The position numbers and the translations under genes were made by a program. A stretch of DNA of 45,475 bases from a bacterium (GTDB lineage Bacteria > Desulfobacterota > GWC2-55-46 > S146-80 > JALXFI01): positions 1 to 45,475 of the forward strand of contig JALXFI010000331.1 of NCBI GenBank assembly GCA_027069035.1, written 5' to 3'. Below, one piece after another: positions 12,784 through 45,475 of the stretch. Position 1 is the first letter of the stretch. Each line of letters opens with the position of its first letter. Under the pieces are notes generated by a model. The model was given only the letters and a program-made list of their open reading frames with translations. It searched no databases and was not told the DNA's origin.

Positions 12784-12799
12784 CTGATATACTCTAAAC

Positions 12800-16377: not shown

Positions 16378-16378
16378 A

Positions 16379-17731: not shown

Positions 17732-17739
17732 TTGTTTAA

Positions 17740-18474: not shown

Positions 18475-18501
18475 TGCCTATCTCCTCCTTATCTTAGACA
18501 A

Positions 18502-20145: not shown

Positions 20146-20180
20146 CTCATAAATCTCTTAATGAAATTACTATTATAAGC

Positions 20181-21386: not shown

Positions 21387-21470
21387 GGATGTAAATTCTG
21401 TTAAGTATCCAGATCTTTTTAAGTCTTTTGACTGTAGAATGGAAAAATTTATAAATATGCTATCCGAAAG

Positions 21471-22466: not shown

Positions 22467-22566
22467 TTTTAATCCTCCCATTATCGATTGCTCGAGTAAT
22501 ACAACTATTACTAAGCATCAGTCCCTCACTAATCAAAGTAACTCAATGGAGTCACCTATATGGCAC

Positions 22567-23421: not shown

Positions 23422-23534
23422 TCGATTCCTCCTCATCTATTTATTATACACAAAGGAGTTGCAACGTATGATTTCCAAGGACAATTTTGCTGCCCCTGCT
23501 TATTTCTTGGTCTTTGTAGAACTCTCAATATTCC

Positions 23535-24596: not shown

Positions 24597-24598
24597 TA

Positions 24599-27010: not shown

Positions 27011-27744
27011 TCAATACCTCCAGATTTAGACCCTATGTAAGGATTTAAGTCCATTAAATATTTTTTTAAAGCAACTCCACCACAATTAAAAAGAAAATCA
27101 ATAACAGAAAGGTTTGGAATAAATTTAGAGCCAATTTGAGGATATTCATGTAACTCAAACTCCTGGAACTTAACCTCAATATGATTTCTCTTAAAATCAT
27201 CTAAGATTAGATATTCTTTCCCAGATTGTCCCGACAAATAAACACCTGCTTTAACTTTATTGCATATATCTAATATTAATTGACTTGCTTTTGAGACCAC
27301 GTCAAGCTTAGAACTTCTGACAATCTCAAGCTCAAAGTCAGAAATATCAAGTACAAACTCGATCAAAGAGAAATTAAAGTCAGCCAGAAATTTATGCTTT
27401 TGTCTATATATCTTCTCAAAAGAAGGGAAAATCTGATCGAAATATGGTGTTTTGTTATAGCAATGGTAAATACTTTTTAAATTTTTATCTTGCCAGTTCT
27501 CATTATAACTGATTTCTATATCTGAAATTAAGGTGTCTCTGGGGGCCTGTTTTATAGGTACAGTTATCCAGATATCTCTATCTTTATTTCTAATCTTGTT
27601 TCTATTTTCGAAATGTCTTCTTTTGAACTGAACACTATCAAGTATAACGTATATATCTGCATGAAATAATTTATGCCAAAATCCAAGCCATGGCAAGTGT
27701 TCTGGTTGATGTATTGTGCATATCTTTTGTCGCTCAACATACAT
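26995..27744 (-). CDS. WbqC-like family protein (function unknown; glycan loci)
   Basis: 249 aa. IHQPEHLPWLGFWHKLFHADIYVILDSVQFKRRHFENRNKI is the characteristic WbqC N-terminal pattern. Confidence 0.75.
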   Translation of the reverse strand: MYVERQKICTIHQPEHLPWLGFWHKLFHADIYVILDSVQFKRRHFENRNKIRNKDRDIWITVPIKQAPRDTLISDIEISYNENWQDKNLKSIYHCYNKTPYFDQIFPSFEKIYRQKHKFLADFNFSLIEFVLDISDFELEIVRSSKLDVVSKASQLILDICNKVKAGVYLSGQSGKEYLILDDFKRNHIEVKFQEFELHEYPQIGSKFIPNLSVIDFLFNCGGVALKKYLMDLNPYIGSKSGGIECQKL

Positions 27745-27749
27745 CTCTT

Positions 27750-29432: not shown

Positions 29433-29433
29433 C

Positions 29434-30750
29434 TTATTCCCAGGTATCACCTCCGAGTAATGTATATTTTAATCCATTTTCGTTCAGCTTATACCTCGAC
29501 CAAACCTCACATGTATCCATTACAATCTTTGTATCTTTTAAATATCTCTTCAATTTAGAACAACTTATCTTTTTATACTTACTATGAGCTGTAAGTACCA
29601 AGACAGCATCGAAAGAAGAGATATCTTCTGGAAAATCAACCACTTGAGTCTGAGTTATCTCATATAACGTAGCCTTTGAATACATAGGATCATTTATACC
29701 AACCTTTATACCTTTATCAGAAAATAGTTCTATAAATCTCAATGCAGGACTGTTGAGATGAAGTCTTGAATCAGGTCTATAAGACAACCCAAGAATTAGA
29801 ACCGACGACACTTTCTGAGAAAGAACCCTCTCAGAAATTATCTGAATCATTTCATAGTCTGTTCTCATTGCTTCATTTAATAGAGTTAAGCTCTCTGGCA
29901 CCTTGCTCGCTTCAGACAGGAAATAACTTGACATGGGAAAGTTAAATCCACCTATACCAGCCGTAGGGCGATATTCGTTAAGCTCAGGATGGGTTGCTGC
30001 AAGTTGTATCACCTTGTTGATGTTACACCCTGGAAATGCCTGAGAAAGTTGGTTTGCAAATGCCATATTTATATATTGAAATGAATTCTCAACACATCTC
30101 GCAAGTTCTACTTCAAAAAAGTTTTCAACTGTCACAATATTATCGTCGATAAGCTCGCAAATTTCCTTAGCCACTAACAGCGATTTATTATCATGACTGC
30201 CGATTAGTCTCCCTAAAGAAACATTCTTAACGTAAGGGTTATAATCCCAATCTCTTCTTGGAGCAACTACCATCAAGTAATCTTTACCTAAAGACTTGCC
30301 TGCCTCACTCAACGCAGGTATAACTATCTCCTCCATCGTTCCTGGTAGAAATGACGACTCCAATATTATTATTGGCTTGAGATTGTTTCTTAATATTGGG
30401 ATATCTTTGAGCTTATTAAGGACATTATAAAGATTTTGATATGTTGGTTTACCAGCCTTCTCCACGGGTACACATAAGAAGTGAACGAGTATGTCTTTTA
30501 GATTTATATTATCAATAGTTTTTAATGAACAATTCTCAAGCTCACCTTCCACAACCACATCATAAGCCCAGTATGTTTTTCTTAATTCTTTAAAATGTTG
30601 CTCTAATTGCTCAATAGTTTTATATTTTGTATCAATTAATATACAACTAATTCCTAATTCTGAATACTTTATTAAGGTATAATATCCTAAATATCCACTC
30701 CCCCATATCGCTATAGAGAAATTATTGTTAAGTAATTCTTTTGTATACAT
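29434..30750 (-). CDS. UDP-glucose/GDP-mannose dehydrogenase-family protein; catalytic Cys position apparently Asn
   Basis: 438 aa. IAIWGSGYLGYYTLIKY Rossmann motif. The central region TAGIGGFNFPMSS aligns by eye to the family GG-x-C-x-P-K-D motif with C replaced by N and K-D replaced by M-S. Confidence 0.7.
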   Translation of the reverse strand: MYTKELLNNNFSIAIWGSGYLGYYTLIKYSELGISCILIDTKYKTIEQLEQHFKELRKTYWAYDVVVEGELENCSLKTIDNINLKDILVHFLCVPVEKAGKPTYQNLYNVLNKLKDIPILRNNLKPIIILESSFLPGTMEEIVIPALSEAGKSLGKDYLMVVAPRRDWDYNPYVKNVSLGRLIGSHDNKSLLVAKEICELIDDNIVTVENFFEVELARCVENSFQYINMAFANQLSQAFPGCNINKVIQLAATHPELNEYRPTAGIGGFNFPMSSYFLSEASKVPESLTLLNEAMRTDYEMIQIISERVLSQKVSSVLILGLSYRPDSRLHLNSPALRFIELFSDKGIKVGINDPMYSKATLYEITQTQVVDFPEDISSFDAVLVLTAHSKYKKISCSKLKRYLKDTKIVMDTCEVWSRYKLNENGLKYTLLGGDTWE

Positions 30751-30772
30751 AGTTCTACTCCTTTTTAGATAC

Positions 30773-31426
30773 TCAGATTATCATATTATAAACTTCAAAA
30801 CCTTCGGCATATCTACCACCACATCTTGCCCCTCTAACAGCAGCTAATCCAAATATCGCCTCCTTCGAGAAATAATCTGAAGTAGTAGTAACACCATTGT
30901 ACTGTGAAGTATATGATGCTATAGCTTCCACTTTTTTCGTAATATCTTGCTCAGAAAGACGGATGAACAGATTCGGATTAAAACCATAGGCACTATTTAT
31001 TATTTCATATCCCAACACAGTCTCTCTCTTAAAGGCTTTCAAGGCAGATATTGATACAGTTCTATGATCCTGATGCACATCATTATAAGTAGGGACAAAT
31101 ACAATGTCAGGTTTAAATTCTTTCTTTATACGGTAAAGTTCTTCAAGAATTAGTTGTCTATACTCTGGGAATAACTGCCCTGCAATTTCAAAATTTATCT
31201 CTAAGTTATCATCGTTTAATCCAAGATAATGAAGGGCATTTTTTTGTTCATCAATTAATCTGTCTTCCTGAATTTCTCCACGAAATGATTTTCTGTTGGC
31301 TGTGAGGGCTAAAACATAAATCTCTGCATTCTTAGAATATTTTGCAATTGTTCCACCACACCCAAATTCTATATCATCCATGTGTGCAGATATGCATAAT
31401 ATGTTCTTACCATTCAAATCTATCAT
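30773..31426 (-). CDS. PIG-L/LmbE-family N-deacetylase
   Basis: 217 aa. ISAHMDDIEFGCGGTIAKY (AHxDD) and VHQDHRTV (HxDH). Confidence 0.85.
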   Translation of the reverse strand: MIDLNGKNILCISAHMDDIEFGCGGTIAKYSKNAEIYVLALTANRKSFRGEIQEDRLIDEQKNALHYLGLNDDNLEINFEIAGQLFPEYRQLILEELYRIKKEFKPDIVFVPTYNDVHQDHRTVSISALKAFKRETVLGYEIINSAYGFNPNLFIRLSEQDITKKVEAIASYTSQYNGVTTTSDYFSKEAIFGLAAVRGARCGGRYAEGFEVYNMII

Positions 31427-31442
31427 AACATCTCTACCTCTA

Positions 31443-32210
31443 TTATACCTTTAAGAAAAGCCTGTCATAAGCATCTATCACGTTTTTAAGGTTCAACTGC
31501 TTTGAGTTCTCTCTCAGGAAGTTAACAATCTTAACAATCCTTTTATAATCCTCAGGCGTATCCATCGTAATTCTAACATCAGGTCGATTCTGCCAGTCTT
31601 TAGCATGTAGAGTTACGACATTAAAGTTATCTATATTCTCATGTATATAATCTACAACATGTTCGAAATGATTAGACTTATATGCCTTTTGATGAGATAT
31701 TTTTAGTGCTTTCAAGGTAACAATCTCTTCTTGAGCCCCAACTGGGAGATTTTTGATATATGTATAGTCTGCCTTTAGTGTCAAATGCTCTGCCAACATC
31801 CGTGCTGTTGAATTCATATCTGTTAAAGGGTCATCAGCTGTTGCTCTAACGATATCAGTTACACCAAAGTTTTCTGCACATTCAATATACCTCTTAAGCA
31901 CATTATCACTACTACCTGTTATATATTGCATCTTATAATCATCCAAAATAAGTCTTACAAGTTCTGCTTCTCTCTCTTCAGAAAGAGCCACATAAACCCT
32001 CTCTGTATCAAAATAATGTAAAAATCTCTTTACCAGAAAAACGATAGCAGGCATTCCAAATATTGGAGCTAATATCTTCGCATGAAGTCTTGAAGACCTT
32101 ATCCTTGCCTGGATAATAATTCCCCAACTTTTAGAGCTGGTAATTATATCTCTCTCTTTCTGCAAATCTTTACTCTTTTGTAGTGTTTCGACAAATAAAT
32201 TGTCTTTCAT
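31443..32210 (-). CDS. SpsF-like cytidylyltransferase (CTP_transf_3)
   Basis: 255 aa. IIIQARIRSSRLHAKILAPIFGMP, SDNVLKRY, IVRATADDPLTD. Confidence 0.75.
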   Translation of the reverse strand: MKDNLFVETLQKSKDLQKERDIITSSKSWGIIIQARIRSSRLHAKILAPIFGMPAIVFLVKRFLHYFDTERVYVALSEEREAELVRLILDDYKMQYITGSSDNVLKRYIECAENFGVTDIVRATADDPLTDMNSTARMLAEHLTLKADYTYIKNLPVGAQEEIVTLKALKISHQKAYKSNHFEHVVDYIHENIDNFNVVTLHAKDWQNRPDVRITMDTPEDYKRIVKIVNFLRENSKQLNLKNVIDAYDRLFLKV

Positions 32211-32216
32211 AGCTAC

Positions 32217-33980
32217 TCAATAATACACTATATCATGGATTGTCTTATAGAAATCGAAGTTTTCTTCCATATTAATTAGTTCCCGAAATTTCTCAAAAGG
32301 ATAACTTCTTTTATTGTTCTCAATGTCATTAATCCACTCAATTATCTCTTCAGCAGTTTTCACACACATGTCAGGAAAATCTCTATAATAGAAATATTGT
32401 AAAGATGGATCAACATCAAAGACAAAAGTTGGGAGTTTAAACTGTAAAGCTTCAGCTGCAAGAGATGAACCCGCGGTAATAGCATAGCTAACTTTTAACA
32501 TCAATTCATATGGACTACCAGTATAAACTTCTATATTAGATGGTTTATCCTTTAATGTTTCTAATTCATTGTAGAACTGTTGAACCCTTTTTGTAGGGCC
32601 GAGCTTTGGCTTAATATATAAAGTCCTGTCACTAAAAAAAGAGGCAACTTTAAATAGTTCCTTATAAATATATTCCCATTTTTTATTCTGAGGACTCTGG
32701 AAAAATACTATATCTTTCGGACGATTTTTTATAGATGATTTGAGTTGTTGTAAAAACTTCAGTCCATGTAAACTACCCACTGGGATTACCTTCATATTCT
32801 TACTCCAACAATGTCCTATTTTTTTATATACGTGAGAACCAAAAACAAAGAATATGTCAAAATCGATATGTCGCCAGATAGAAGTTACACCGGGAACAGG
32901 CAAACCATGATGCATTCCTATTGATTTGACATTCTTCTTTCTTAAGAGTGAGGTCCTCACAATATGCTCGGGGGCATATTCATCCCTTCCCCAGAATGCT
33001 TTTATCTCATATTTACCTAAGAAAGCGCATATTCTTGCTTTTCTATATGGGAGTAAAATTATCTCTTCGAATAACTGACTCTGGACATCCGAGAATCTAA
33101 AATAAAGTGTATTTATATCCTTAAATAGTTCAATTAACAGTTTGATAAATTGCATTATTGTTACTGCGCCATCACTACGCGAGGTATAATGTACTCCATT
33201 TAATTTATTTGTTATATCATTCAATAGCTTCTTGGGTATACTGTGGCGAAATAAGATCAGTAGATCAGTTTTACTTTTTACAGAATACAACGCTATATCT
33301 GGATTGGAATGATTAGAAGAAGATATAAAAGAAATCGGTTCTATATGAAAATCATACACAAGAACAAACCGTTTCTTCTTAGTTTTAAACCTCAGCTTTA
33401 AGATCAAATATGAACAAATTCCTATAAAGACTAATATGGAGTTAAGAAAATTAGAAATCTTATATAATAATGGAGTATAGGAAGCGAGTTTATTATCCAT
33501 TTTTTTATCAGGGAAGCACAGGTTAAATAATGCGATATCTTCTTCTGTTGTCCCAAGAAGAGTATATTTAGGGTTAGAGGTATTTAATTTGTCAAGAATA
33601 TATTTAATCTTAACCAGTTGTATCAATTTTCTTTTTATCTCCCTGATATTTATTTTTTCAATAGCATAAGAATATTCTATATCTTCGTATATTCTCTCTT
33701 TTTTTATTACATCATATGCTTTCTGAAGCAGAAGTTCTATTTCATTATACTCCTGATATCCTGGTGCAACCTCTCCAAACCTCAATCTATCAGAAAAGAG
33801 TGTATCAATATGTTGCACCTTGTTTAATTCTACTAATTTTCTAATCAAAAATGAGAGGAGATATCTGTTGACAAAAATGAAAGGTTCAATTGCAACGTAA
33901 AAAACCCTTCTTTTGAGGATAAATATATTCCACAACAATAATATAAATGTAATTTCGTTTACAATAATTAAGAGGGTCAT
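32217..33980 (-). CDS. Large uncharacterised membrane-anchored protein with a GT-B-like C-terminal half (candidate transferase/polymerase)
   Basis: About 587 aa from the ATG at 33980 (the ORF-track start at 33998 is a TTG). Hydrophobic MTLLIIVNEITFILLLWNIFIL and SILVFIGICSYLILKL. C-terminal VIPVGSLHG, DIVFFQSP and YAITAGSSLAAEALQFKLPTFVFDVDP. Confidence 0.4.
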   Translation of the reverse strand: MTLLIIVNEITFILLLWNIFILKRRVFYVAIEPFIFVNRYLLSFLIRKLVELNKVQHIDTLFSDRLRFGEVAPGYQEYNEIELLLQKAYDVIKKERIYEDIEYSYAIEKINIREIKRKLIQLVKIKYILDKLNTSNPKYTLLGTTEEDIALFNLCFPDKKMDNKLASYTPLLYKISNFLNSILVFIGICSYLILKLRFKTKKKRFVLVYDFHIEPISFISSSNHSNPDIALYSVKSKTDLLILFRHSIPKKLLNDITNKLNGVHYTSRSDGAVTIMQFIKLLIELFKDINTLYFRFSDVQSQLFEEIILLPYRKARICAFLGKYEIKAFWGRDEYAPEHIVRTSLLRKKNVKSIGMHHGLPVPGVTSIWRHIDFDIFFVFGSHVYKKIGHCWSKNMKVIPVGSLHGLKFLQQLKSSIKNRPKDIVFFQSPQNKKWEYIYKELFKVASFFSDRTLYIKPKLGPTKRVQQFYNELETLKDKPSNIEVYTGSPYELMLKVSYAITAGSSLAAEALQFKLPTFVFDVDPSLQYFYYRDFPDMCVKTAEEIIEWINDIENNKRSYPFEKFRELINMEENFDFYKTIHDIVYY

Positions 33981-34008
33981 TGAGGAAAGTTGAAACAAAG
34001 GCTAAAAA

Positions 34009-35520: not shown

Positions 35521-37269
35521 TCACATTATCCGTTTTAATTCTTCTGCCCACAATCTATACCAGTCTCTTCTGGTATAGGCATATCGCTCGCAAAACTCGT
35601 TACGTGCCTTCTGAACTTCTGGACTCAACCACCATTTTAATGGGTTATCGAATATCCTTTTAACTTTTTCTGCAGCACTTACAGGATCTTTATGAAGTAT
35701 CTCGACCCCTCTCAATAAATCAAAGTATTTCTCTGCCTCTGGTCTCATAAGAAATACACTATGGTCCCAATAGAGTACACAGGGGACATTTATAGCCAAT
35801 GCCTCAAGAAAAGAGGTGTAAGGATGATCTATAACTACAAGATATGCCCTTTGCATTAGTTCCGTCAACCTGCCTTTAGTGTTAAACTTTACCTCTGGAA
35901 CTATATTCCTTATATAATCTTCTTCAATCTCTCTCCATTCTTTATCTACATATAGTCTGTACAAAACCCTATTCTTAATTTTTTGTGGGAGTGCATTCAA
36001 AAACTGCTTCTTACTCTCGAAATACATTGCGATATCATCGGATCGTAGTGTAGTTACAAACTTAAAAACATATCTACGAACAACGTTACCAACATATACA
36101 ATATATTGGGAGCGCTTCGAGGGAGAGTATTTATCCCTGAGCCTTGATAGATGAGGACTGGGGAGTGGCTTAATATTCTCTCTACAACTCCAGCCCCATG
36201 TATAAAAAAAATCTTTCTCCTGAGCCATCTTCTCCTCTTGGTGAGCTAAAGCAGTTCCATAAATACCCCCATGTTGAAACTCTACTATCTTAGCTCCTTT
36301 TATCAATCTCTTTGCAGCAAAAAACTTAAAAGGCTCAAAAAGACGCCACCCTGTAGCAGAACCTATTATTTTCACAGCATCAAGCTTTCCTTTCTTATTC
36401 ACTAACTTATCATACATACCATAGTTTTCTACATATGATACCGGTATAGCGCCAGGGATGAGTTGCAACAATATTGATTTGAATATATCAGAAGAATTGT
36501 TATCAATGCTTAATCTTTTTCTCATATCATAAGAAAGAGCGACCTTACTACAATTTATTCCAGGGGTGTCAAAATTTATGTAAGAGAAATTTCTTATACC
36601 CAATCTTAAGATAAGAGAGAACCAGTCCCTTATAGCTAAATGGTTGTACATATAGCTTAATACAATATGGCCATTGAAAATCCATTCTAATGGTTTTAAT
36701 AAAGTGAGAAGTATTTTTCTCTTGCTACTATACCTCATGCCATAGGGGCTGGCCTTGTATTCATATTGTACCTCTTTTATTCTATCTGGGCATAGCTCAT
36801 AACTAATTAGGCTAAATAACTTAAGATTAAAATAATCTTCTTTTACAATTCGATTAATAAAATCATTTGTATCCAGCGTTATCAAATTACACTGCTCTCT
36901 TGGAAGCACATGGGTATAAAAGTCGAATAACATTAGGGCATTTTTCATCCTCCTAAATCTCTCATAAAGAACCTCTGTAAAAATTAAAAGCCAATCTCCA
37001 ACAAGAATCTTCCAATACTTCAAAGGATAAGATACGTTATGTATATAATTTAACCTTTCGGCTAATTGGGTCATTAACTCGTTGTATATATTATAACAGT
37101 AGTCGGCATCTTCCTTTATCTCAATAGCAGACTTCCATGGAGAAGCTGCTATAGGATAGTAAGGGTTATTCACCATGTTGTTCTTTAAACACCATGTGCC
37201 CAGCAGGATTACCTCCTTCTCTAAATCCCATATGTCTGATATCCTGGTTGTAGCAAGATAATATCTCAT
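35521..37269 (-). CDS. Large soluble putative transferase; resembles, from memory, the Leptospira LIC12162-type family found beside neuB/neuA genes
   Basis: About 582 aa from the ATG at 37269 (the ORF-track start is a TTG). IVEFQHGGIYG and YLVVIDHPYTSFLEALAINVPCVLYWD. The family call is unverified. Confidence 0.4.
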   Translation of the reverse strand: MRYYLATTRISDIWDLEKEVILLGTWCLKNNMVNNPYYPIAASPWKSAIEIKEDADYCYNIYNELMTQLAERLNYIHNVSYPLKYWKILVGDWLLIFTEVLYERFRRMKNALMLFDFYTHVLPREQCNLITLDTNDFINRIVKEDYFNLKLFSLISYELCPDRIKEVQYEYKASPYGMRYSSKRKILLTLLKPLEWIFNGHIVLSYMYNHLAIRDWFSLILRLGIRNFSYINFDTPGINCSKVALSYDMRKRLSIDNNSSDIFKSILLQLIPGAIPVSYVENYGMYDKLVNKKGKLDAVKIIGSATGWRLFEPFKFFAAKRLIKGAKIVEFQHGGIYGTALAHQEEKMAQEKDFFYTWGWSCRENIKPLPSPHLSRLRDKYSPSKRSQYIVYVGNVVRRYVFKFVTTLRSDDIAMYFESKKQFLNALPQKIKNRVLYRLYVDKEWREIEEDYIRNIVPEVKFNTKGRLTELMQRAYLVVIDHPYTSFLEALAINVPCVLYWDHSVFLMRPEAEKYFDLLRGVEILHKDPVSAAEKVKRIFDNPLKWWLSPEVQKARNEFCERYAYTRRDWYRLWAEELKRIM

Positions 37270-37271
37270 GA

Positions 37272-38336
37272 TCAAATCAGGTCATCAAATGTGATTTCAC
37301 TACCTATTTCCATATCTCTTATAATACACCTGCCTATAACCTCATCAATCTTATCGGCATTGACTCCCTTCTGTGATATAAGAGGCGAAATCATCTCTTC
37401 TTTCAAAATAGTACCTGCTTTTAAGGCACGGTTAACGTGCAAAGAACGCCTGAGCTGTCTCTTTGATTCCATTTCACATGGCTGGCATGTCTTCTTCACC
37501 TCTCCCAACATCTTTTCAAGTCGCCTTATCTCTTTTACAAGATTTTGCATATCCTTAGGGTCAGCAGATAAGGAATGGTCACCAAAACCCTGTGACTTAT
37601 CGAGTGTAAAATGCTTTTCTACAATACATGCCCCTAGCGCAACGGCACCTATACATGCAAGGTACCCTACAGTATGATCTGAGTATCCGACAGGCACATC
37701 ATCATATCTATTCATCAGAAAGGATATAGAGCGGAGATTTGTCTCTTCATCAGGGGTTGGATAAGATGAGACACAGTGGAGAAGGACTATCTTATCCATT
37801 GGAAATACTCCTATAGCCCTATCTATCTCTTCTAACTCTGCTTGACCTGTAGACAATATCACCGGCTTGTTCTTCGAAGCCACATGGCGAAGTAGCAAGA
37901 TGTTTATGAGATCACCTGAAGCAATTTTATATGCAGGCACAAGGGGTTCTAAGAAGTCCACCGAATCTTCATCGAAGGGTGTACATAAAAAATCAAGTCC
38001 ACATTCTTTTGAGAGCTTATACAGTTCCATCATCTGGTCATGATTGAGTTCAAGGGCTTTAAACCGCTCAAACTGGGTTTTATATCCAAGAGATTTGGCC
38101 CGTTTAAAAACAGGCACGGTTCTGGAAATAAACTTTTCAGCCTTATATAACTGAAACTTTACAGCATCAACACCAGTCTTTGCTGCCTCAAAGACCATTT
38201 GTTTAGCAAGAGAGAGGTCTCCATTGTGGTTGGTACCTATCTCTGCTATAATGTATATACTTTTATTAAACCGCTCAAAAAATTTATTTACACTTAAAGA
38301 GCTGTAGTTATCTTGCCTTGGTTCTGCTTTCCTCAT
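37272..38336 (-). CDS. NeuB-family ulosonic acid synthase, paralogue 2
   Basis: 354 aa. IIAEIGTNHNGD, LLHCVSSYPT, YSDHTVG, VEKHFTLDKS. SAF-like tail RRSLHVNRALKAGTIL. AGGTG SD 5 nt upstream. Confidence 0.9.
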   Translation of the reverse strand: MRKAEPRQDNYSSLSVNKFFERFNKSIYIIAEIGTNHNGDLSLAKQMVFEAAKTGVDAVKFQLYKAEKFISRTVPVFKRAKSLGYKTQFERFKALELNHDQMMELYKLSKECGLDFLCTPFDEDSVDFLEPLVPAYKIASGDLINILLLRHVASKNKPVILSTGQAELEEIDRAIGVFPMDKIVLLHCVSSYPTPDEETNLRSISFLMNRYDDVPVGYSDHTVGYLACIGAVALGACIVEKHFTLDKSQGFGDHSLSADPKDMQNLVKEIRRLEKMLGEVKKTCQPCEMESKRQLRRSLHVNRALKAGTILKEEMISPLISQKGVNADKIDEVIGRCIIRDMEIGSEITFDDLI

Positions 38337-38395
38337 AATCGCACCTATAATACTACTTTTCTACAACCTCCATGTTAAGCTCTCAGCTAAGTTAG

Positions 38396-39118
38396 TCATG
38401 CCTTCATCCCTCTTAAAATAACCAATCCTTCAAAAACTTTCATATCAAATGGGGTATCTATATCAAGGGACTCCTCCTGAGACACCACTATGCCTTTAAC
38501 ATTATCTCCTAAAGCAAAATTTTTACCATTCCAGTAATTAAGTAGAGACCTTTTTCTACCAAAGATAGCACCTGTCATACCATATGCCTCGGGTCTGTCC
38601 TGTTTCTGCTGGTAGCTTTCGGTAGTATATTCTGTAAGAGGAGAAATTCTGCTGGTTTCATTATCATATTTATAAGCCCTGAAGGGATGGAAGTGAATTA
38701 TCTTTGTTATAGTTACAACAGAATCACAATGAGTCTTCTCCATCAATCTTACTGCCAGTTTTATTGTTTCAGGTCTTATTAATGGAGAGGTGGGTTGTAT
38801 CGAAAAAACAAGGTCGTAATAACTATTCTGATTCTCAAGATATTCTACAGCATGTTTTACAACATAAACGAGTGAAACTTCATCTCTTGCAAATTCTTGA
38901 GGTCTTATAAAGGGTATCTCAATGGCAGGGTATCTCGAACTTACCACTTCGGCTATCTCTTCAGAGTCAGTAGATAGAACTACTCTATTAAAAGCCTCTG
39001 ATTCAAGGATGGTTTCTATCACATATCCTATCAATGGTTTTCCCCCTACTGTCACTATATTCTTTTTAGGAATTGCTTTAGAACCTCCCCTTGCAGGTAT
39101 GATGCATAATGTACCCAT
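38396..39118 (-). CDS. Acylneuraminate (CMP-ulosonic acid) cytidylyltransferase, NeuA-like
   Basis: 240 aa. LCIIPARGGSKAIPKKNIVTVGGKPLIGYVIE, IPFIRPQEFARDE, QPTSPL. Confidence 0.85.
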   Translation of the reverse strand: MGTLCIIPARGGSKAIPKKNIVTVGGKPLIGYVIETILESEAFNRVVLSTDSEEIAEVVSSRYPAIEIPFIRPQEFARDEVSLVYVVKHAVEYLENQNSYYDLVFSIQPTSPLIRPETIKLAVRLMEKTHCDSVVTITKIIHFHPFRAYKYDNETSRISPLTEYTTESYQQKQDRPEAYGMTGAIFGRKRSLLNYWNGKNFALGDNVKGIVVSQEESLDIDTPFDMKVFEGLVILRGMKA

Positions 39119-39128
39119 ACTGTTTAAG

Positions 39129-39893
39129 TTATTGAACTATACGCAATTTGGTATTGATAGAAGGATCTAAGACTTTCTCCTTTATCCTTCCTTCATGATC
39201 TATATGGGGATTGTTATCAAAAAACTCTATAATATCCAATAATGTAAATTCCTTGTTTTTTTTGTATAGATAATTGTATAACTTTTCAACCACTTCAAAA
39301 TCATCCTGAGTGTCAATCGTAACCGTATAATTGGGTCTATAATATTTATCTGAAGGACACCTGTATTTTGCATGTCTAAATACATGTGGGTGATCTTTAA
39401 AGTACAAGGTCATATATTCAGAGAAATTTGGGTCCACAGATAATTCCAGGCACTTCTTCATTGCCTTAAAGGAAATGATCTCTGGTCTTGTCCCCCGAGG
39501 TGTATCTTCTGTAAATGTGTAGTCAGCTCTCTCCTTTATATGGAGCTTCACCATCTCATCTATGATGAACGGATCGGTGAGGGGATTGTCTCCTGTGATA
39601 CGTACAATATGGTCAGCCAGATATTTTTCAGCTGCCTCTATAAAACGGAGCAAGACATTTTCTGGATGACCTCTAAATACCTTAAACCCGTATTCATTGG
39701 CAAAGACCTCTATAGGATCATCTCCAGGGAGGGTAGAGGTACAGATAACAGTATCAACAGGTACCTTTGCCATCCTCACTCTTTGCATGAGATGCCAAAG
39801 GATAGATTTTCCCTCTATGGTTTTTAGTGCCTTACCAGGCAATCTCTTTGACTTCATCCTTACAGCAACAAGATTAACAACTATCGGCTTCAT
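39129..39893 (-). CDS. SpsF-like cytidylyltransferase (CTP_transf_3)
   Basis: VAVRMKSKRLPGKALKTIEGKSIL, FRGHPENVLLRF, IVRITGDNPLTDP. I prefer the ATG at 39893 over the TTG at 39905. Confidence 0.8.
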   Translation of the reverse strand: MKPIVVNLVAVRMKSKRLPGKALKTIEGKSILWHLMQRVRMAKVPVDTVICTSTLPGDDPIEVFANEYGFKVFRGHPENVLLRFIEAAEKYLADHIVRITGDNPLTDPFIIDEMVKLHIKERADYTFTEDTPRGTRPEIISFKAMKKCLELSVDPNFSEYMTLYFKDHPHVFRHAKYRCPSDKYYRPNYTVTIDTQDDFEVVEKLYNYLYKKNKEFTLLDIIEFFDNNPHIDHEGRIKEKVLDPSINTKLRIVQ

Positions 39894-40908
39894 ATAGATC
39901 TTCAAGACGTATTGCCTTATTGGCAGGTATGAAGTGCTTTGTTTTCTTTAGGACTCTCTTATATCTATCAGGAGGTAATCCCTCCTCTTCTGTCCTCTTA
40001 AAAGAGAGGTCTTCTAAGGTAATGAGGTGACCTTTAGGTATATCTCTTGAAGCCACTATCTTCTTTTTCATCAGTCGTCTATAAGTAACTTCAGCTTTGC
40101 TCTCACCTGGTACTATCTCATTTATACCGTACGCCTTTTCTATCTGTCTCACCATTCCTACCAATCGTGCAAACTCATCTGGATTTAATGCAGAATAGTA
40201 ATCACGCCCCTTCTTTGACCTATCAAGAGTAATATGTTTTTCTATTACACTCACACCATAACCAATAGCAACGAGGGGAAGTGAGAGAGCAAGTTCTGAC
40301 TCAGCATCTATATGATCAGCAAAACCTAAATGATAAGGATATCTTTCCTTCAATACATTAAGTAGTCTGAAATTGGTATCATCAATACGTGTTGGAAAAC
40401 CTTGAAAACCATGCATTAAAATGATGTTCTTATTGCCAATTTTTTCTATATTTTGGATTGCATAGCTTATCTCTGTCTCTGTTGCTGCACCTACTGAGAG
40501 AATAAGAGGCTTCATAGTAGCTGCTACATATTTGAGTAAGAATGGATTAGTCAAGTCAGATGTAGGGATTTTATAAGCTGATATATCCAGTTTTTCAGCC
40601 AGTTTGAAACTCCTTTCATCAAAAACCTCTGAAACAACAAACAAACCTATTCTTCTAGAATATTCGATAATTTCATACCACTGTTCATCAGAGAATTGAA
40701 GCTGCTTAAAACTTGGATACTTATGATGATTAGGGACTATAAGATTATCTGTATTTAATATTTGATACTTAATAGCATCTGCCTCTGTCATCGAGACAGC
40801 ATCAGCTATCCTCTTAGCAAGTTCAACATCGCCCTCATGACTGGAAGCCGTTTCTGCTATAACGAATATAGATTCAAAAGGTTTAATTAAGGCTCCATTG
40901 AGTTCCAT
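39874..40908 (-). CDS. NeuB/SpsE-family ulosonic acid synthase, paralogue 3 (divergent N-terminal motif)
   Basis: FVIAETASSHEGD where AEIGxNHNGD is expected. FADHIDA, VIEKHITLDRS, and SAF-like tail KKKIVASRDIPKGHLITL. I prefer the ATG at 40908 (MELNGALIK...), one nt after the upstream TGA, over 40965. Confidence 0.85.
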   Translation of the reverse strand: MELNGALIKPFESIFVIAETASSHEGDVELAKRIADAVSMTEADAIKYQILNTDNLIVPNHHKYPSFKQLQFSDEQWYEIIEYSRRIGLFVVSEVFDERSFKLAEKLDISAYKIPTSDLTNPFLLKYVAATMKPLILSVGAATETEISYAIQNIEKIGNKNIILMHGFQGFPTRIDDTNFRLLNVLKERYPYHLGFADHIDAESELALSLPLVAIGYGVSVIEKHITLDRSKKGRDYYSALNPDEFARLVGMVRQIEKAYGINEIVPGESKAEVTYRRLMKKKIVASRDIPKGHLITLEDLSFKRTEEEGLPPDRYKRVLKKTKHFIPANKAIRLEDLYEADSC

Positions 40909-40909
40909 A

Positions 40910-41911
40910 TCACTTCCATCGGTATGTTGTTGGTCTGAAACAGGTTCGACACGCAGGTATGTCATCCAATTCTATCTTTCTTATCTTATCTCTTAATCTA
41001 TTCAATGTGGCACCATGCCATATCTCTTCAATCGACTGTTTATAGTAATCTCCCACCACTGTCTTTCTGTTCCAGTCACCACAACACATAAGAACCTTAC
41101 CGTCCCGATTGATATTCAATCTTTGCCATGGCTGTTCACAAAACCTTCTTCCAATCGGTCTCTTGCCGTCTCTAAATGGATATCCATCCTCGACATAGCG
41201 ATCTTGATTTTCGATAATCGCTATATTATCAACTCCTCTGCCCTTCCAGAAGTTGATGAACTGCTCAACCTCTCTCTCTGTTTCATAATAATTTACCATT
41301 TGGACACGAATAAAGGGTCTCTTTACGCCCTTCTGTTTCTTTACCTTTATGAAAGTTTCTATATTTCTAATTAGCTTATCATAATCTCCCCCAACCCTTA
41401 TCTTCTCATAAGACTCCTTAGTTGCTCCATCTACTGAGAATATGATTCGATCAAGCCCTGCATCTACCAAGTCCTCAACCTTCTTTCTGTTTGCAGGCAG
41501 TCCATTCGTATTAAACTGGACCTCAAGTACCCCTTTATTCTTTGCATAACGGACAAATTCAACCAGGTTTTTATGAAGCATGGGCTCGCCCCTAAAATTA
41601 AACTTTATCGAATACACACCAAGTTCGGCACATTCGTCTATCGCTTTATATGCAAGGGTTGGTTCTATAAAACCTGCGTTGGGCACCCCTTTTATTCCAT
41701 GGACACACATAATGCATCTCAGATTACACGCATCACTTACCTCTATATCTACATGAAGTGGAACATTACTTAATATTCTGAATTTGGGATAATAATTCCA
41801 TTTCAAACGATAAAGCCAGTAGCGAAAATCTCTACCCCTTTTCACAATATTATTCACATAACCCTTTATCCCTGTCCTATCTACTATATTTTTCTTATAT
41901 TTGTAATGCAT
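40910..41911 (-). CDS. Radical SAM enzyme with a Cys-poor SPASM/twitch-like C-terminal domain (paralogue 2)
   Basis: 333 aa. CNLRCIMC. C-terminal C(EQPW)...CC(GDW)...CRTC. Collinear with the 21471-22466 product, including the N-terminal W-x-Y-P-x-F...PLHVD extension. Confidence 0.85.
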   Translation of the reverse strand: MHYKYKKNIVDRTGIKGYVNNIVKRGRDFRYWLYRLKWNYYPKFRILSNVPLHVDIEVSDACNLRCIMCVHGIKGVPNAGFIEPTLAYKAIDECAELGVYSIKFNFRGEPMLHKNLVEFVRYAKNKGVLEVQFNTNGLPANRKKVEDLVDAGLDRIIFSVDGATKESYEKIRVGGDYDKLIRNIETFIKVKKQKGVKRPFIRVQMVNYYETEREVEQFINFWKGRGVDNIAIIENQDRYVEDGYPFRDGKRPIGRRFCEQPWQRLNINRDGKVLMCCGDWNRKTVVGDYYKQSIEEIWHGATLNRLRDKIRKIELDDIPACRTCFRPTTYRWK

Positions 41912-41915
41912 TAAC

Positions 41916-43952
41916 CTATACCGTGTTGATTATACAAGGTTGACGAAGTAACTTTTTTGTATTGACCTTCGCGAGTATCCTTGAAATGCCAATCAAATCA
42001 GTGCCATATATCTTCTTAAATCTTTTTATCGTGTCAAGTTGCTCTTCAGTATGTCTGAATACAATAAGCCTCTCTTTATAACAGCCTATTCCTTCTCCCA
42101 AAAGATAGAATCCCCTTTGCTTAATGATTGAGTCGAAATCAAATTTTGATATCATCTTAATAGCTACGGTATTGTCTTCAAATAATCCTTTGGCTTGTGA
42201 AACACAATAAGTAACCACCTCTTTTATACAATCTCTTTGCAAATTGTTAAGTTTACCTATATGCTGGGATAGAATTTTCAATGCGCTTCTTAATACTACC
42301 TCACCCATCTCTCCTATATATTGCAGCATACCCAAAGATTTATACTTAAATAATAGATTACTTCCATACTCACCACTGATATACTTATCAATGTTCTCTT
42401 TAAGGTATCTATATAAAGCCTCTTTATTTTCCCATAACTCACCTCTGGTCTCGTTCAAAAAGTCATCAAAAAGTCTATTCAGCCTCTCTGGTACCGGGTT
42501 ATTATAAATATCCTTAAGCAACTTAAATATAGGGATAGACTCACTCTTGAAAAGTTGATGAAGCGGATAAAAAAGACCGTCGTTATAAAACAGAGCGACT
42601 ATTAAATGCATCTTCCTACATTGAAGATACTCGTCAAAGCTCATACTATCTGTTGATACAACCACTTCTTCAATCTCAGCGGAAGTCAATCTATCACCAT
42701 TATACTCGAAAAAGCCAAAGCATCTTGGAATCACTCTGTATCTGGTTATCAATCCAAATCTCTTACGATACTCAGTTGACCACATCTCAGAACCAGGTAA
42801 CAACATTAATGTATAAAGGTTTATATAATTGAATCCCATGTCTATTAACTCCGCAATACTTTTAAAATGGGATTCCTTAGTCTCTCCAGGTAATGCAAGA
42901 ATCAATTCACTGTAACTATTAGCCCCTGATGCTGTAGCTTCTATGGCAAGATGAAGCAGTTGTTTTTTGGAGATATTGCTGCGTTTTATGTTAGAGAGTA
43001 CAACTTTATCCATGCTTTGCACAGAACCAGCAACCCGTAGAGCCCCATCGATTAGCTGACCACCTTTTATTATCCTATCTTTATTGGACTTTCCAGTAGA
43101 CACATTAACATAAGACGGCCATCCGAACTCTTTCCGACACTGGCTAATGAGTTCAAACGTAAAGTAGTCCTCTCTGAACATACCAAAATTGGAATCAGCT
43201 ATATGGAGGTCAGCCCGCCCTCCACAATCTACTACTGGTTTTATACGTCGTGCTATATAAAATAACTCTTCACGGATATAATTCAAAGGCTTTCTATTAA
43301 TTTTATTATAATACCTAGCACCTTCACAGCAATATGTGCATCTGAATGGACAACCACGAACTGTCTGAATGATTGGAAGAAATCTTCCGTCAAAAAATTC
43401 ATCTAACACTCCCTGTGTATATGGAGAGGGTATATCTCCAAGATCTTCAATACGTGGGGCGGAATGATTCAAGACCACCTTATTTTTACTTTTTGAAAAA
43501 TAATGTATAGAAGGAACATCCACATCCACCTGAGGTCTAATATCAGTTGATAGCAATTCTTTTATCAATTGACTAAAGGGCAACTCCCCCTCCCCCACCA
43601 CATAATAATCTATAGCAGCATGTTTCCTTAAAAACTCCTCCCTGCTATGCTTGTCCTGAGGGTAATTAGGTCCACCAAATACAATAGTAGTTTCTGGATG
43701 CCATTTACGTATCTCTTTGGCAAAGATATAACTAAGATTGAAATTCCATGCATAATTGGAGAAACCAATAACTTCCGGCACTTCTATAGATAAAGCCTCT
43801 ACTAACTGTTTAGGTGTCTTAAAAATACGCAAGGCAACAGAATCACCCAAAACTTTTGAAGTATAGGTAGCAATACAACCAATAGCATAAGGCATAATGT
43901 CAGAGGCAATTGTCTGTTGTGTATATGTTAGATCAACCAAGAATATTAACAT
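41916..43952 (-). CDS. B12-binding-domain radical SAM enzyme (class B, methyltransferase-like) with a long C-terminal extension
   Basis: 678 aa. N-terminal cobalamin-binding-like Rossmann region (VIGFSNYAWNFN...IVFGGPNYP...YYVVGEGE). VRGCPFRCTYC cluster motif. About 250-aa uncharacterised tail. Confidence 0.8.
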   Translation of the reverse strand: MLIFLVDLTYTQQTIASDIMPYAIGCIATYTSKVLGDSVALRIFKTPKQLVEALSIEVPEVIGFSNYAWNFNLSYIFAKEIRKWHPETTIVFGGPNYPQDKHSREEFLRKHAAIDYYVVGEGELPFSQLIKELLSTDIRPQVDVDVPSIHYFSKSKNKVVLNHSAPRIEDLGDIPSPYTQGVLDEFFDGRFLPIIQTVRGCPFRCTYCCEGARYYNKINRKPLNYIREELFYIARRIKPVVDCGGRADLHIADSNFGMFREDYFTFELISQCRKEFGWPSYVNVSTGKSNKDRIIKGGQLIDGALRVAGSVQSMDKVVLSNIKRSNISKKQLLHLAIEATASGANSYSELILALPGETKESHFKSIAELIDMGFNYINLYTLMLLPGSEMWSTEYRKRFGLITRYRVIPRCFGFFEYNGDRLTSAEIEEVVVSTDSMSFDEYLQCRKMHLIVALFYNDGLFYPLHQLFKSESIPIFKLLKDIYNNPVPERLNRLFDDFLNETRGELWENKEALYRYLKENIDKYISGEYGSNLLFKYKSLGMLQYIGEMGEVVLRSALKILSQHIGKLNNLQRDCIKEVVTYCVSQAKGLFEDNTVAIKMISKFDFDSIIKQRGFYLLGEGIGCYKERLIVFRHTEEQLDTIKRFKKIYGTDLIGISRILAKVNTKKLLRQPCIINTV

Positions 43953-45328
43953 TACGACAATTCCTCCAAGATCTTTTCAGCAACCCAGTAACTGAATTCA
44001 TCTTCTATCTTCCAAGAATCCTTTGGAGACATCTCTACATGACCGACCTTGCTTCCAAGAAAGCTGTTTTTATACAGATTCTTTGTTTTAATTACATAGA
44101 TAGAACCATTTTCTTTGTAAATGGTATTTTTATCTTCTCTCAAAAGGCGTTTTTGATATCCCACGGGAGCTAATCCATACTTGTCAGGCTTCCAGTGGAA
44201 TGTGAGGTCAACTACAACCCCTATAACAGAGTCTGTATTATATAAAAGGATTGTATCGATCGCTTCTGTTATATGTTTTTCTTTTCTAAAAGGAGTAAAA
44301 TACTGTAACTGGACGATCAGGTCAGGAACATCTTCTTCTCTCTCTTTAAAGACCTCAATCATGTGCCGTAATACATTATCAAAGGGAACACTGGTTCTGG
44401 CGAGTTCCACAGGCCTTAAAAACGGGACCTCGGCTCCAAACTTCTTAGATACCTCTGCTATCTCCTGATCTTCGGTGGAGACTATCACACGATCAATCAA
44501 TTCAGTTTTTAATGCCTCTTCAATTGTGTAGGCAATAAGAGGCTTCCCATTTAAAGGCTTGAGGGCAAGTTTCTCTCTATTCCTGAACAAACCCATCGCA
44601 GGAATAACAGCGATTATATTTTTCCCTTCATAGTACTGCTTTTTATCAACAAACTTCTTCTTGACATATCTTCTCGCCTCCATCCGAGCTTCAAAGTTGT
44701 TTGACATGCTTACATCATGCTTTCTGTAATACATAAGTGGCAGATTAACATTATAGACATTGAACTTATCAATAAATCTAATCCAAAAATCATAATCTTC
44801 TTGATATCTTAACTCTTCGCTATACCCACCTATAGCATCATAACATTCTCTTCTGAACATAGCGCCTGCTGCAAGGGGATTACGGTCCAGAAGTTTGACC
44901 TCGTCATTCACCTTCTGTAAACGATAGGAATCTATTATCTCTCCGTATTTGTTAATACGATAATAATCTGGATAAACCATATGGATGTTAGGATCGCTGT
45001 CGAGTATATACGACTCTATTAGTAGGATATTCTCATCAAAGTAATCATCCGCATCCAGTCTGATAATATATCTTCCTTTTGAAGCCCTTATACCTGTATT
45101 GCATGCCTTAGCAAGCCCCACACCTTCAGTTGTAATAACCTCTATTTTCTCGGGGTACTTGTTCTTGTAGTGATTGAGTATTACAGGAGTACTGTCTGTA
45201 CTGCCATCATCCACTACTATCATCTCCCAGTCAGTAAATCTCTGTTTTATAACACTATCAAGACACTGTGGTAGATATTTCCCATAGTTGTGGGCTGTAA
45301 CTATAACGCTAACCTTTACTTCTGACAT
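43952..45328 (-). CDS. Fusion protein A: N-terminal GT2 domain (intact DxD) plus C-terminal CTP_transf_3 cytidylyltransferase-like domain
   Basis: VSVIVTAHNYGKYLPQCLDSV, VVDDGSTD, IRLDADDYF; then IIAVIPAMGLFRNREKLALKPLNGKPLIAYTIEEA, RVIVSTED, GAEVPFLRP. Start set at the ATG at 45328 (MSEVKV), which has AAGGTGGG 5 nt upstream; the ORF-track start at 45358 is a TTG. Confidence 0.75.
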   Translation of the reverse strand: MSEVKVSVIVTAHNYGKYLPQCLDSVIKQRFTDWEMIVVDDGSTDSTPVILNHYKNKYPEKIEVITTEGVGLAKACNTGIRASKGRYIIRLDADDYFDENILLIESYILDSDPNIHMVYPDYYRINKYGEIIDSYRLQKVNDEVKLLDRNPLAAGAMFRRECYDAIGGYSEELRYQEDYDFWIRFIDKFNVYNVNLPLMYYRKHDVSMSNNFEARMEARRYVKKKFVDKKQYYEGKNIIAVIPAMGLFRNREKLALKPLNGKPLIAYTIEEALKTELIDRVIVSTEDQEIAEVSKKFGAEVPFLRPVELARTSVPFDNVLRHMIEVFKEREEDVPDLIVQLQYFTPFRKEKHITEAIDTILLYNTDSVIGVVVDLTFHWKPDKYGLAPVGYQKRLLREDKNTIYKENGSIYVIKTKNLYKNSFLGSKVGHVEMSPKDSWKIEDEFSYWVAEKILEELS

Positions 45329-45475
45329 CTTTACCCACCTTTTGTAAAAAATACTCAAAGGTCATTTTCAGTCCAGCATACAGGTCCCATTTAGGTTCAA
45401 ACCCCAATATCTGCCTCGCCTTTGAGATATCAGAGAAGTTCCTTCTAACATCGCCAGAGCGAGTATCTCCATAAA
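45309..45475 (-). CDS. Extended SDR NAD-dependent sugar epimerase/dehydratase (GalE/WbpP-like); C-terminal fragment, 5' end outside the window
   Basis: My translation of the minus strand gives YGDTRSGDVRRNFSDISKARQILGFEPKWDLYAGLKMTFEYFLQKVGKDVRSKG-stop. The GD-x-R...DISKA...LG-x-P-K pattern is the typical C-terminus of this family. Its TAG at 45309-45311 overlaps the next gene by 20 nt. Confidence 0.7.
   Translation of the reverse strand, partial: YGDTRSGDVRRNFSDISKARQILGFEPKWDLYAGLKMTFEYFLQKVGKDVRSKG

Follow-up and report, generated by a model that had tools for sequence, protein, structure and literature searches.

What does a bacterium do with two strongly diverged NeuB-family synthases whose genes stand together and enclose two cytidylyltransferases (CTs) of different subtypes? 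The question is raised by a contig from a member of the Desulfobacterota (JALXFI010000331.1, assembly GCA_027069035.1), whose full 45,475 nt we refer to as the window and whose coordinates we use throughout. In its block 37272..40908, the synthase NeuB-3, an SpsF-like CT, a NeuA-like CT and a second synthase, NeuB-2, follow one another, and a third synthase (NeuB-1) lies elsewhere in the window. We think it rather probable that the module to which this block belongs makes and activates two different ulosonic acids, and that behind one of them stand a synthase of a separate clade, here called N3, an SpsF-type CT and a radical S-adenosylmethionine (rSAM) enzyme of the twitch type. As a preliminary description of the sequence had it, the four genes are consecutive, with two NeuBs enclosing two CT subtypes. 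They are intact minus-strand open reading frames (ORFs) of the expected Pfam families, and all of the motifs quoted in that description are present: IIAEIGTNHNGD in NeuB-2, and FVIAETASSHEGD, FADHIDA and EKHITLDRS in NeuB-3. The paralogues are as divergent as it claimed, with identities of 30% (NeuB-3/NeuB-2), 33% (NeuB-3/NeuB-1) and 37% (NeuB-2/NeuB-1), and two rSAM genes, one of the twitch/SPASM type and one of the B12-binding type, do lie directly upstream of NeuB-3.

NeuB-3 is a member of a distinct and conserved NeuB clade and not a drifting copy. Its score against Pfam NeuB (PF03102; cut-off 22.1 bits) is 178.3 bits vs 262-269 for its window paralogues (269.4 for NeuB-2), its SAF domain scores 27 bits vs 22.1 in NeuB-2 (cut-off 21), and all three synthases of the window fall below the equivalog cut-offs of NeuB_NnaB (TIGR03569, 399.65; NeuB-3 213.3, NeuB-2 331.7, NeuB-1 306.2) and PseI (TIGR03586, 340.25; 181.2, 275.6 and 272.1, in the same order). 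At E<=1e-10, NeuB-3 has 726 homologues, 40-61% identical, in very diverse bacteria and archaea, across which the signatures AE-x-A-x-[SA]-H-x-G and [FY]-A-D-H-x-D-[AG]-[ED] are kept. We placed it in a neighbour-joining tree of 144 NeuB-family sequences, with NmNeuB, CjPseI, BsSpsE and the PDB entry 6NCS as references. The N3 clade (52 sequences) forms one side of the deepest split, a bipartition recovered in 100/100 bootstrap replicates; NmNeuB, CjPseI, BsSpsE, NeuB-1 and NeuB-2 all lie outside N3, and no characterised enzyme lies inside it. The comparison thus sets NeuB-3 apart from the NeuB, PseI and SpsE references, and an SpsE-like character, for which the preliminary description had left room, falls away, since BsSpsE (1VLI) stands on the canonical side of that split. 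Pseudogene-like drift, named there as a danger, was looked for among the homologues of NeuB-3, and conservation was found: the odd residues are signatures of the clade. Two finer groupings did not hold, NeuB-1 as sister of 6NCS (16/100) and a broad 'N2' clade around NeuB-2 (3/100), and the latter was dropped.

The active site shows what separates the clade from other synthases. Aligned to 1XUU and numbered as NmNeuB, with residue roles taken from PMC6795526 and PMC11339185, NeuB-3 retains 11 catalytic, metal or substrate residues, including E25, K53, Q55, K129, H215, E234, H236, D247 and R314, each of which is conserved at 88-100% in N3. The metal ligands His215/His236, the catalytic Glu25/Glu234 and the Lys53/Lys129 pair that holds the carboxylate of phosphoenolpyruvate (PEP) are present in all three window synthases. 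NeuB-3 also carries the substitutions G27A, N29S, T110E, C182G, N184Q, Y186F and S213A, most of which recur throughout the clade at positions near-invariant elsewhere: Gly27 becomes Ala (96%), Thr110 becomes Asp or Glu (85%), and Asn29 is never kept, giving way to Ser or Ala. Cys182 is replaced by Gly and position 184 is Gln in 100% of N3, position 213 is never Ser (A48/M19/Q12), and the serines at 132 and 154 are relaxed, to Ser/Thr/Ala and Ser/Gly/Ala, respectively. Ser132, Ser154 and Ser213 make up the PEP-phosphate triad that is fully conserved in bacterial and mammalian synthases (PMC11339185); NeuB-1 and NeuB-2 have all three serines, and NeuB-3 has Thr, Ser and Ala. Because the catalytic residues are kept and the replaced positions surround the phosphate and carboxylate of PEP, NeuB-3 looks like a catalytically competent, metal-dependent enzyme with a remodelled PEP-phosphate and sugar pocket.

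The CT that belongs with this synthase can be read from gene fusions and synteny. Among the best 120 of the 726 NeuB-3 homologues, 37 are NeuB(+SAF)~CTP_transf_3 fusions, whose CT domain shows 30-47% identity to the SpsF-like CT of the window and matches the NeuA-like CT weakly, if at all. Across 87 fetched loci (21 with an N3 synthase and 66 with other NeuBs, numbered from L001), an SpsF-type CT adjoins or is fused to the synthase in 19/21 N3 loci vs 8/66 others, and a NeuA-type CT is found in 6/21 vs 36/66. We use the label SpsF-type for a CTP_transf_3 member distinct from the NeuA-type CTs, with homologues named SpsF by the Joint Genome Institute and with 6OEW ('Cytidylyltransferase', 3.6e-28) as the best PDB match of the window protein. 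Taken together, these observations support NeuB-3 and the SpsF-like CT as a genuine functional pair. The NeuA-like CT aligns full-length (residues 5-231) to the CMP-Neu5Ac synthetases 6IFD (1.4e-29) and 1EYR (2e-21), bears the nucleotide-binding motif IIPARGGSKAIPKKN (N-terminal PARGGSK..PxKN type), and scores 146 bits against NCBIfam PseF, below the cut-off of 205.7; it likely activates the product of NeuB-2, and the order SpsF-CT, NeuA-CT, NeuB is found also in L001 and L088. We infer the assignment of each CT to its synthase from this pattern.

The rSAM enzyme directly upstream of NeuB-3 is the third member. Its best PDB matches are BtrN (4M7T, 4.4e-14, with an alignment that spans core and C-terminal region) and BlsE (7VOB, 6.8e-10). 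In 33 family members, the cysteines C62, C66 and C69 (CX3CX2C) are invariant, as are C258, C276, C277, C321 and C324; BtrN also has Cys at the positions aligned to C276, C321 and C324, and Fe-S cluster binding is predicted. The family has at least 472 members, with generic names only. In 10/21 N3 loci, the gene immediately preceding the N3 NeuB is of the rSAM/SPASM type; these include loci from a Magnetococcales metagenome-assembled genome (MAG), Pelagibacteraceae single-cell genomes, Nitrospirae, Acidobacteriota, Desulfovibrionaceae and an archaeal contig. Three rSAM homologues picked without regard to NeuB (L088, L089 and L090) adjoin N3-type NeuBs in 3/3 cases; L088 repeats the gene order of the window, and the rSAM and NeuB of L090 are separated by a DegT aminotransferase.

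We also scanned metagenomes independently and could evaluate 59 rSAM loci, scoring the neighbours within 5 kb. A NeuB or CT gene is near the rSAM in 53 of them (90%), an N3-type NeuB in 26 (44%; directly downstream in 19), and a fusion of a family 2 glycosyltransferase (GT2) with a CT in 32; the same GT2-CT fusion occurs in 12/21 N3 loci. The twitch rSAM family is hence specific to nonulosonate-type clusters, although not exclusively to N3. In a recurrent group of rSAM loci with no N3 NeuB within 5 kb (L102, L106, L123, L124, L134, L141-L145 and L155), the order is twitch rSAM, sometimes a B12-binding rSAM, then the GT2-CT fusion with a canonical-type NeuB or a NeuA-type CT, and because this N3-free arrangement recurs, the GT2-CT fusion may be the most constant partner of the rSAM. 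The CT domain of the window's fusion aligns full-length to NmNeuA (1EYR), and its GT2 domain matches 6P61 and chondroitin synthase. The B12-binding rSAM lies near the twitch rSAM in 16 of the 59 loci (27%) and accompanies the module in L003/L004, L007, L014 and L021; at 159.8 bits against the NCBIfam KedN5-family C-methyltransferase (cut-off 700, far above), it is probably a cobalamin-dependent C-methyltransferase that serves as an accessory tailoring enzyme. As for the idea that the substrate of NeuB-3 may be non-standard because the gene follows two rSAM genes, the link with the twitch rSAM is conserved and no local accident, and that with the B12-binding rSAM is less regular.

NeuB-2, which had been called canonical, has the canonical entry motif and barrel but lacks the SAF-domain residue Arg314. 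This arginine is essential in NmNeuB, where it positions the N-acetyl group of the substrate (PMC6795526), and it is the sole conserved SAF-domain catalytic residue reported (PMC8208679). NeuB-3 has it, as do 98% of N3 members, and NeuB-2 has Ile and NeuB-1 has Thr in its place, a loss that flags further non-standard substrates at the same locus. NeuB-2 and NeuB-3 differ at R314, Y186, T110, S213 and position 184, so that the difference between the two synthases extends to substrate-contacting positions and fits the two different substrates proposed for them. Among the 144 sequences, the nearest to NeuB-2 are the second NeuBs of the N3 modules L007 (60% identity) and L001 (53%), a grouping found in 96/100 replicates with Ile, Ile and Val at position 314 in NeuB-2, L007 and L001, respectively. 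Because the nearest relatives of NeuB-2 are the second NeuBs of N3 modules, the whole block is inherited as a unit. A second NeuB is present in 17/21 N3 loci vs 2/66 other NeuB loci. The simple picture of two pairs back to back has to be given up in this form, as the block is part of a larger conserved module with the GT2-CT fusion and rSAM, and relatives of NeuB-2 co-travel with orthologues of NeuB-3.

We can now describe how the locus may work. The four genes would be the downstream half of a translationally coupled sub-operon, in the order GT2-CT fusion, B12-binding rSAM, twitch rSAM, NeuB-3, SpsF-type CT, NeuA-type CT, NeuB-2 and LIC12162-family transferase, inside a surface-glycan locus of at least 45 kb. 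From this sub-operon would come two different CMP-activated sugar acids, both of them 2-keto-3-deoxy compounds of nonulosonic type. NeuB-3 would condense PEP with a sugar, and the SpsF-type CT would activate the product; the twitch rSAM would modify this pair's precursor or product, most likely converting a secondary alcohol of the sugar into a ketone, from which amination, epimerisation or deoxygenation could follow, and the cobalamin-dependent rSAM methylase would probably add a further modification in this organism. NeuB-2 (without Arg314) and the NeuA-like CT would supply the second activated sugar. The intactness of the genes, their families, the conserved residues, the separation of the clade, the fusions and the synteny counts are observations; the two distinct products, the order of the reactions and the rSAM chemistry we infer.

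A more far-reaching proposal, which we put forward only tentatively, is that the N3 synthase, SpsF-type CT and twitch rSAM constitute a fourth major, unrecognised ulosonic-acid route beside those to neuraminic (Neu), legionaminic (Leg) and pseudaminic (Pse) acids, giving a new class of surface sugar acid via radical chemistry, and that the module, usually including a GT2-CT fusion and a second NeuB, is spread over many bacterial phyla, SAR11 single-cell genomes, and DPANN or other archaea. The acid made in this way could be an epimer, at C4 or elsewhere, or it could be a keto-, amino- or C-methyl-branched nonulosonate.

Several observations weigh against two separately made and separately activated acids, and the main one is the existence of a second architecture. 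Type A modules, to which the window belongs, comprise rSAM, N3 NeuB, SpsF-CT (often fused), GT2-CT fusion, second NeuB, and short-chain dehydrogenase/reductase (SDR) and methyltransferase genes. Type B modules lack the rSAM; they usually consist of an N3 - SpsF-CT - NeuB triad surrounded by classical Leg-type genes, and they have only one CT. Seven such loci provide just one SpsF-type CT and one set of Leg-type precursor genes for two NeuBs, which is more easily explained by one pathway, or by two products that are closely related, than by independent pairs, and which leaves room for N3 making a stereoisomer from the same precursor. It is mainly because of type B that we qualify the earlier proposal of two sugars, each with its own activator: the pairing of NeuB-3 with the SpsF-type CT stands, on the fusions and synteny above, but the general rule does not. 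Members of the rSAM family also neighbour a GT2-CT fusion together with a canonical-type NeuB in loci that have no N3 NeuB, and because such loci exist, the substrate of the rSAM need not be specific to N3. Also to be counted here are the absence from the window of an obvious dehydratase, aminotransferase or hydrolase set adjoining the block to feed either synthase, and a tree that is neighbour-joining only, with n=144 and just four experimentally anchored references.

Might the two synthases work in one pathway? NeuB-3-type enzymes and their partner NeuBs could act together on one sugar acid, either sequentially or as a heterodimer with swapped SAF domains, in which the SAF domain of NeuB-3 would donate Arg314 to the canonical barrel of NeuB-2. 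There is a structural precedent in NmNeuB, a domain-swapped dimer in which Arg314 completes the active site of the partner subunit (PMC6795526), and the defects in the window are complementary, NeuB-2 being without Arg314 and NeuB-3 without Ser213. The enrichment of second NeuBs at N3 loci points the same way, as do the consecutive N3, SpsF-CT and NeuB genes of L003, L006, L008, L077 (reversed) and L083, of which only L003 has a NeuA-type CT or a GT2-CT fusion. However, the conservation of the N3 metal ligands and catalytic Glu and Lys residues indicates that selection maintains N3's own barrel as an enzyme; Arg314 is retained in half of the NeuB-2-like partners; fused N3~CT genes occur without a nearby second NeuB in L011 and L012; and the window has two stand-alone CTs and a third CT domain. 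We regard a single shared pathway as improbable.

Another explanation keeps the two synthases apart and alters the reaction: NeuB-3-type enzymes might use a non-hexose acceptor (a pentose or an rSAM-made aldehyde) or a donor other than PEP, giving a product of another chain length or chemistry. The relaxed PEP-phosphate serines of N3 would fit this, as would the acidic residue that replaces Thr110 beside the PEP carboxylate (roles from PMC11339185), the glucuronate decarboxylase BlsE as second-best solved relative of the rSAM, and the UDP-sugar 6-dehydrogenase found near the N3 NeuB in L005, L006, L019 and L039, with one in the window. Yet N3 keeps every residue that the NeuB reaction requires with an N-acyl sugar (Lys53, Lys129, Glu25, Glu234, the His pair, Asp247, Gln55 and Arg314), the loss of Ser213 may be made good by the invariant Gln184, and type B loci hold only Leg-type hexose precursor genes. 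We had considered a hexuronate or decarboxylation precursor, from the WbpA/B/D/E-like genes of L006, and demoted it to a part of this explanation when the UDP-sugar dehydrogenase proved to be present in just those 4 mapped N3 loci. Taken as a whole, an unusual acceptor or donor seems unlikely to us.

That NeuB-2 and NeuB-3 are isozymes making the same nonulosonic acid, for instance a legionaminic-type one, duplicated for flux or differential regulation, would agree with the single Leg-type precursor set that serves two NeuBs in type B. We hold it to be very unlikely: the two are 30% identical, lie on opposite sides of the deepest split and differ in substrate and PEP contacts, and both types are retained together across bacterial phyla and archaea, unlike what redundancy predicts. 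That NeuB-3 is a decaying or inactive paralogue, as its lower Pfam score (178 bits vs 262-269) and non-canonical entry motif might hint, is hardly credible given 726 homologues, an intact ORF, conserved catalytic and signature residues and frequent fusion to a CT.

We therefore return to two different ulosonic acids and compare the proposed module with known systems. In B. subtilis, SpsE and SpsF are a legionaminic acid synthase and a cytidylyltransferase, and genetic data place the action of SpsF after Leg has been made, in its use (PMC7439481). The window resembles this system in that a NeuB-family synthase adjoins a putative SpsF-type CTP_transf_3 protein for a surface glycan; the differences are that the motifs of BsSpsE (AEAGINHDG, HCV..YP and SDH) are canonical and that SpsM/C/D/G-type precursor genes do not adjoin the window block. 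The precedent appears valid for the type of CT, but BsSpsE is a canonical NeuB. The sps operon is not known to contain an rSAM gene, GT2-CT fusion or second NeuB. With canonical NeuB, LegI and PseI enzymes (NmNeuB 1XUU, CjPseI 8H2C), NeuB-3 shares the TIM barrel and SAF domain, the His/His metal site, Glu25/Glu234, Lys53/Lys129, Asp247 and Arg314, and with the NeuB/NeuA, LegI/LegF and PseI/PseF pairs the logic of a synthase plus a CT; unlike them, N3 changes Gly27, Asn29, Thr110, Cys182, residue 184 and Ser213, and pairs with SpsF-type rather than NeuA-type CTs. Several neuB paralogues for different sugars in one genome are familiar from C. jejuni.

The best solved relatives of the rSAM, BtrN (2-deoxy-scyllo-inosamine dehydrogenase) and BlsE (cytosylglucuronate decarboxylase), are twitch rSAMs that act on carbohydrates. 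The module enzyme resembles BtrN in its CX3CX2C motif and in C-terminal Cys residues aligning with the auxiliary-cluster region, and BtrN is followed in its own pathway by an aminotransferase, as is the rSAM of L090; it differs from both in its low similarity (E about 1e-14) and in a context that is nonulosonate rather than aminoglycoside or nucleoside antibiotic. No CT-rSAM fusion was found among the 120 closest homologues of the SpsF-like CT. The spirochaete family spiro-SPASM (TIGR04321) has an N-terminus matched by the window's SpsF-type CTs and a C-terminus matched by its rSAM/SPASM enzymes: the SpsF-like CT aligns to profile positions 20-150, the rSAM to 225-482 and another window SpsF-type CT (SpsF_b) to 24-218, with scores of 35.7, 92.8 and 47.5 bits, far below the cut-off of 250, so that the window proteins are non-members and their genes are separate. 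This domain fusion is independent evidence that the CT type and the rSAM type would work together. We found no description of the module in literature joining nonulosonic acid, radical SAM, NeuB or flagellin glycosylation; a 2021 phylogeny of 13,941 nonulosonate synthases makes no mention of a CT fusion, a radical-SAM neighbour or a clade without Ser213, and one Vibrio study notes only an SpsF-like CT domain in place of NeuA.

The layout of the window (Table 1) is that of a co-directional glycan-biosynthesis locus, with all genes on the minus strand and a G+C content of about 36%. NeuB-3, the NeuA-like CT, NeuB-2 and both rSAMs match deposited proteins exactly, as does the SpsF-like CT from the start at 39893, and every window protein is a singleton when clustered at 90% identity. 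The junctions of the block are gaps of 1-59 nt or short overlaps: the SpsF-like CT overlaps the NeuB-3 stop by 20 nt, the stop codon of the twitch rSAM is 1 nt from the NeuB-3 start, and the LIC12162-family transferase overlaps the NeuB-2 stop by 4 nt. Promoter-like and terminator-like sites in the block show no excess over shuffled sequence, and because of this and the tight junctions we read the block as one operon segment. The LIC12162-family transferase, a homologue of which is present in the module contig L002, may, to judge by its adjacency, transfer one of the activated sugars.

Table 1. Features of the window discussed in the text, in order of position from the upstream end of the sub-operon
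Feature	Position (strand)	Length	Matches	Assignment
GT2-CT fusion	43952..45358 (-)		Pfam Glycos_transf_2 + CTP_transf_3	GT2 glycosyltransferase + NeuA-like CT
B12-binding rSAM	41916..43952 (-)		Pfam B12-binding + Radical_SAM	Probable C-methyltransferase
Twitch/abridged-SPASM rSAM	40910..41911 (-)		Pfam Radical_SAM + SPASM	BtrN/BlsE-like
NeuB-3	39874..40908 (-)	344 aa	Pfam NeuB 2.3e-52, SAF 6.8e-06	Predicted N3-clade PEP-condensing synthase
SpsF-like CT	39129..39893 (-)	254 aa	CTP_transf_3 3.9e-25	Predicted partner of NeuB-3
NeuA-like CT	38396..39118 (-)	240 aa	CTP_transf_3 at about 1e-25	NeuA/PseF-like, putative CMP-nonulosonate synthetase
NeuB-2	37272..38336 (-)	354 aa	Pfam NeuB 3.5e-80, SAF 2.3e-04	Canonical barrel
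LIC12162-family transferase	35521..37275 (-)		NCBIfam TIGR04331, 400.8 bits vs cut-off 225	Candidate transferase
Protein without Pfam family	32217..33998 (-)	593 aa		
De-N-acetylase and third SpsF-type CT region	29434..32210 (-)			
Third SpsF-type CT	31443..32210 (-)			
Amidotransferase region	25637..29450 and 2356..4254 (-)			
Second cassette	16379..25609 (-)			
NeuB-1	24599..25609 (-)			Without Arg314
PseG-like hydrolase	23535..24596 (-)		121 bits, below cut-off	
Second SPASM rSAM	21471..22481 (-)		29% identical to the twitch rSAM	
Galactarate/altronate-dehydratase-like	18502..20145 (-)			
Second GT2-CT fusion	16379..17731 (-)			
Protein without Pfam family	14791..16395 (-)	534 aa	TIGR04326 (O_ant_LIC13510), faint match only	
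CDP-hexose set	11369..14769 (-)			

Beyond the block, the window holds a second, parallel cassette in which NeuB-1 is followed by the PseG-like hydrolase, a methyltransferase and the second SPASM rSAM, and further by a GFO/IDH/MocA oxidoreductase, the galactarate/altronate-dehydratase-like protein, a PseF-like CT and the second GT2-CT fusion; a sugar-acid dehydratase is unusual in a nonulosonate cassette. The third SpsF-type CT has no adjoining synthase and stands beside a PIG-L family de-N-acetylase and a UDP-glucose/GDP-mannose-dehydrogenase-family protein, and the window in total has six CTP_transf_3 domains vs three NeuB synthases. The amidotransferase regions encode two asparagine-synthase-like (AsnS-like) amidotransferases and one member each of the WbqC family and the sulfatase/alkaline-phosphatase superfamily; genes of the AsnS-like and WbqC-like kinds recur by the module in L010, L019, L021, L102, L123 and L165, and their products may form amidino or amide decorations on sugars. 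The CDP-hexose set (glucose-1-phosphate cytidylyltransferase-like, 4,6-dehydratase-like and small epimerase-like genes and an SDR) suggests that a 3,6-dideoxy or 6-deoxyhexose is among the components of this glycan. The LIC12162 and LIC13510 families were first defined in Leptospira O-antigen loci.

Elsewhere, the module is found in varied settings. In the Pelagibacteraceae (SAR11-type) single-cell loci L015 and L019, a second NeuB is followed by the rSAM and a fused N3~CT, and in L019 by the GT2-CT fusion. In L089, from an alphaproteobacterial MAG (GCA_002634385), the module is bordered by FliD, two MotAB pairs and a protein (>1187 aa) that combines methyltransferase, MptE-like (Maf) and TPR regions, which suggests that it is part of a flagellin glycosylation island with flagellin as the acceptor there; because this module lies in a flagellar locus beside a Maf-type protein, a role in surface glycosylation gains support. 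Bacillus stercoris D7XPN1 carries an orphan fusion of N3 and an SpsF-type CT (L011, 7977..9773; 598 aa, no SAF domain detected). It is flanked by a GNAT/DUF5362 pair and by a cardiolipin-synthase gene, and its neighbourhood holds no further glycan genes. As an isolated insertion among housekeeping genes, it was set aside as uninformative about context, and this gene in a cultured Bacillus could be an experimental handle.

Nonulosonic acids are found on flagella, capsules, O-antigens and S-layers, where they influence immune recognition, phage attachment and motility. Genome-based prediction now recognises the Neu, Leg and Pse routes, and the N3 module points to chemistry beyond these, in carriers that are abundant in the environment and poorly characterised (Omnitrophota, Magnetococcales, Pelagibacteraceae, Nitrospirota and Woesearchaeota). 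The clade can be separated from the annotation 'N-acetylneuraminate synthase family protein' by the signature HG[FY]Q.[FY]PT and a residue other than Ser before the DH motif. Widespread, conserved and unstudied, the module offers a concrete set of enzymes for expression, and it probably makes a new kind of surface sugar acid.

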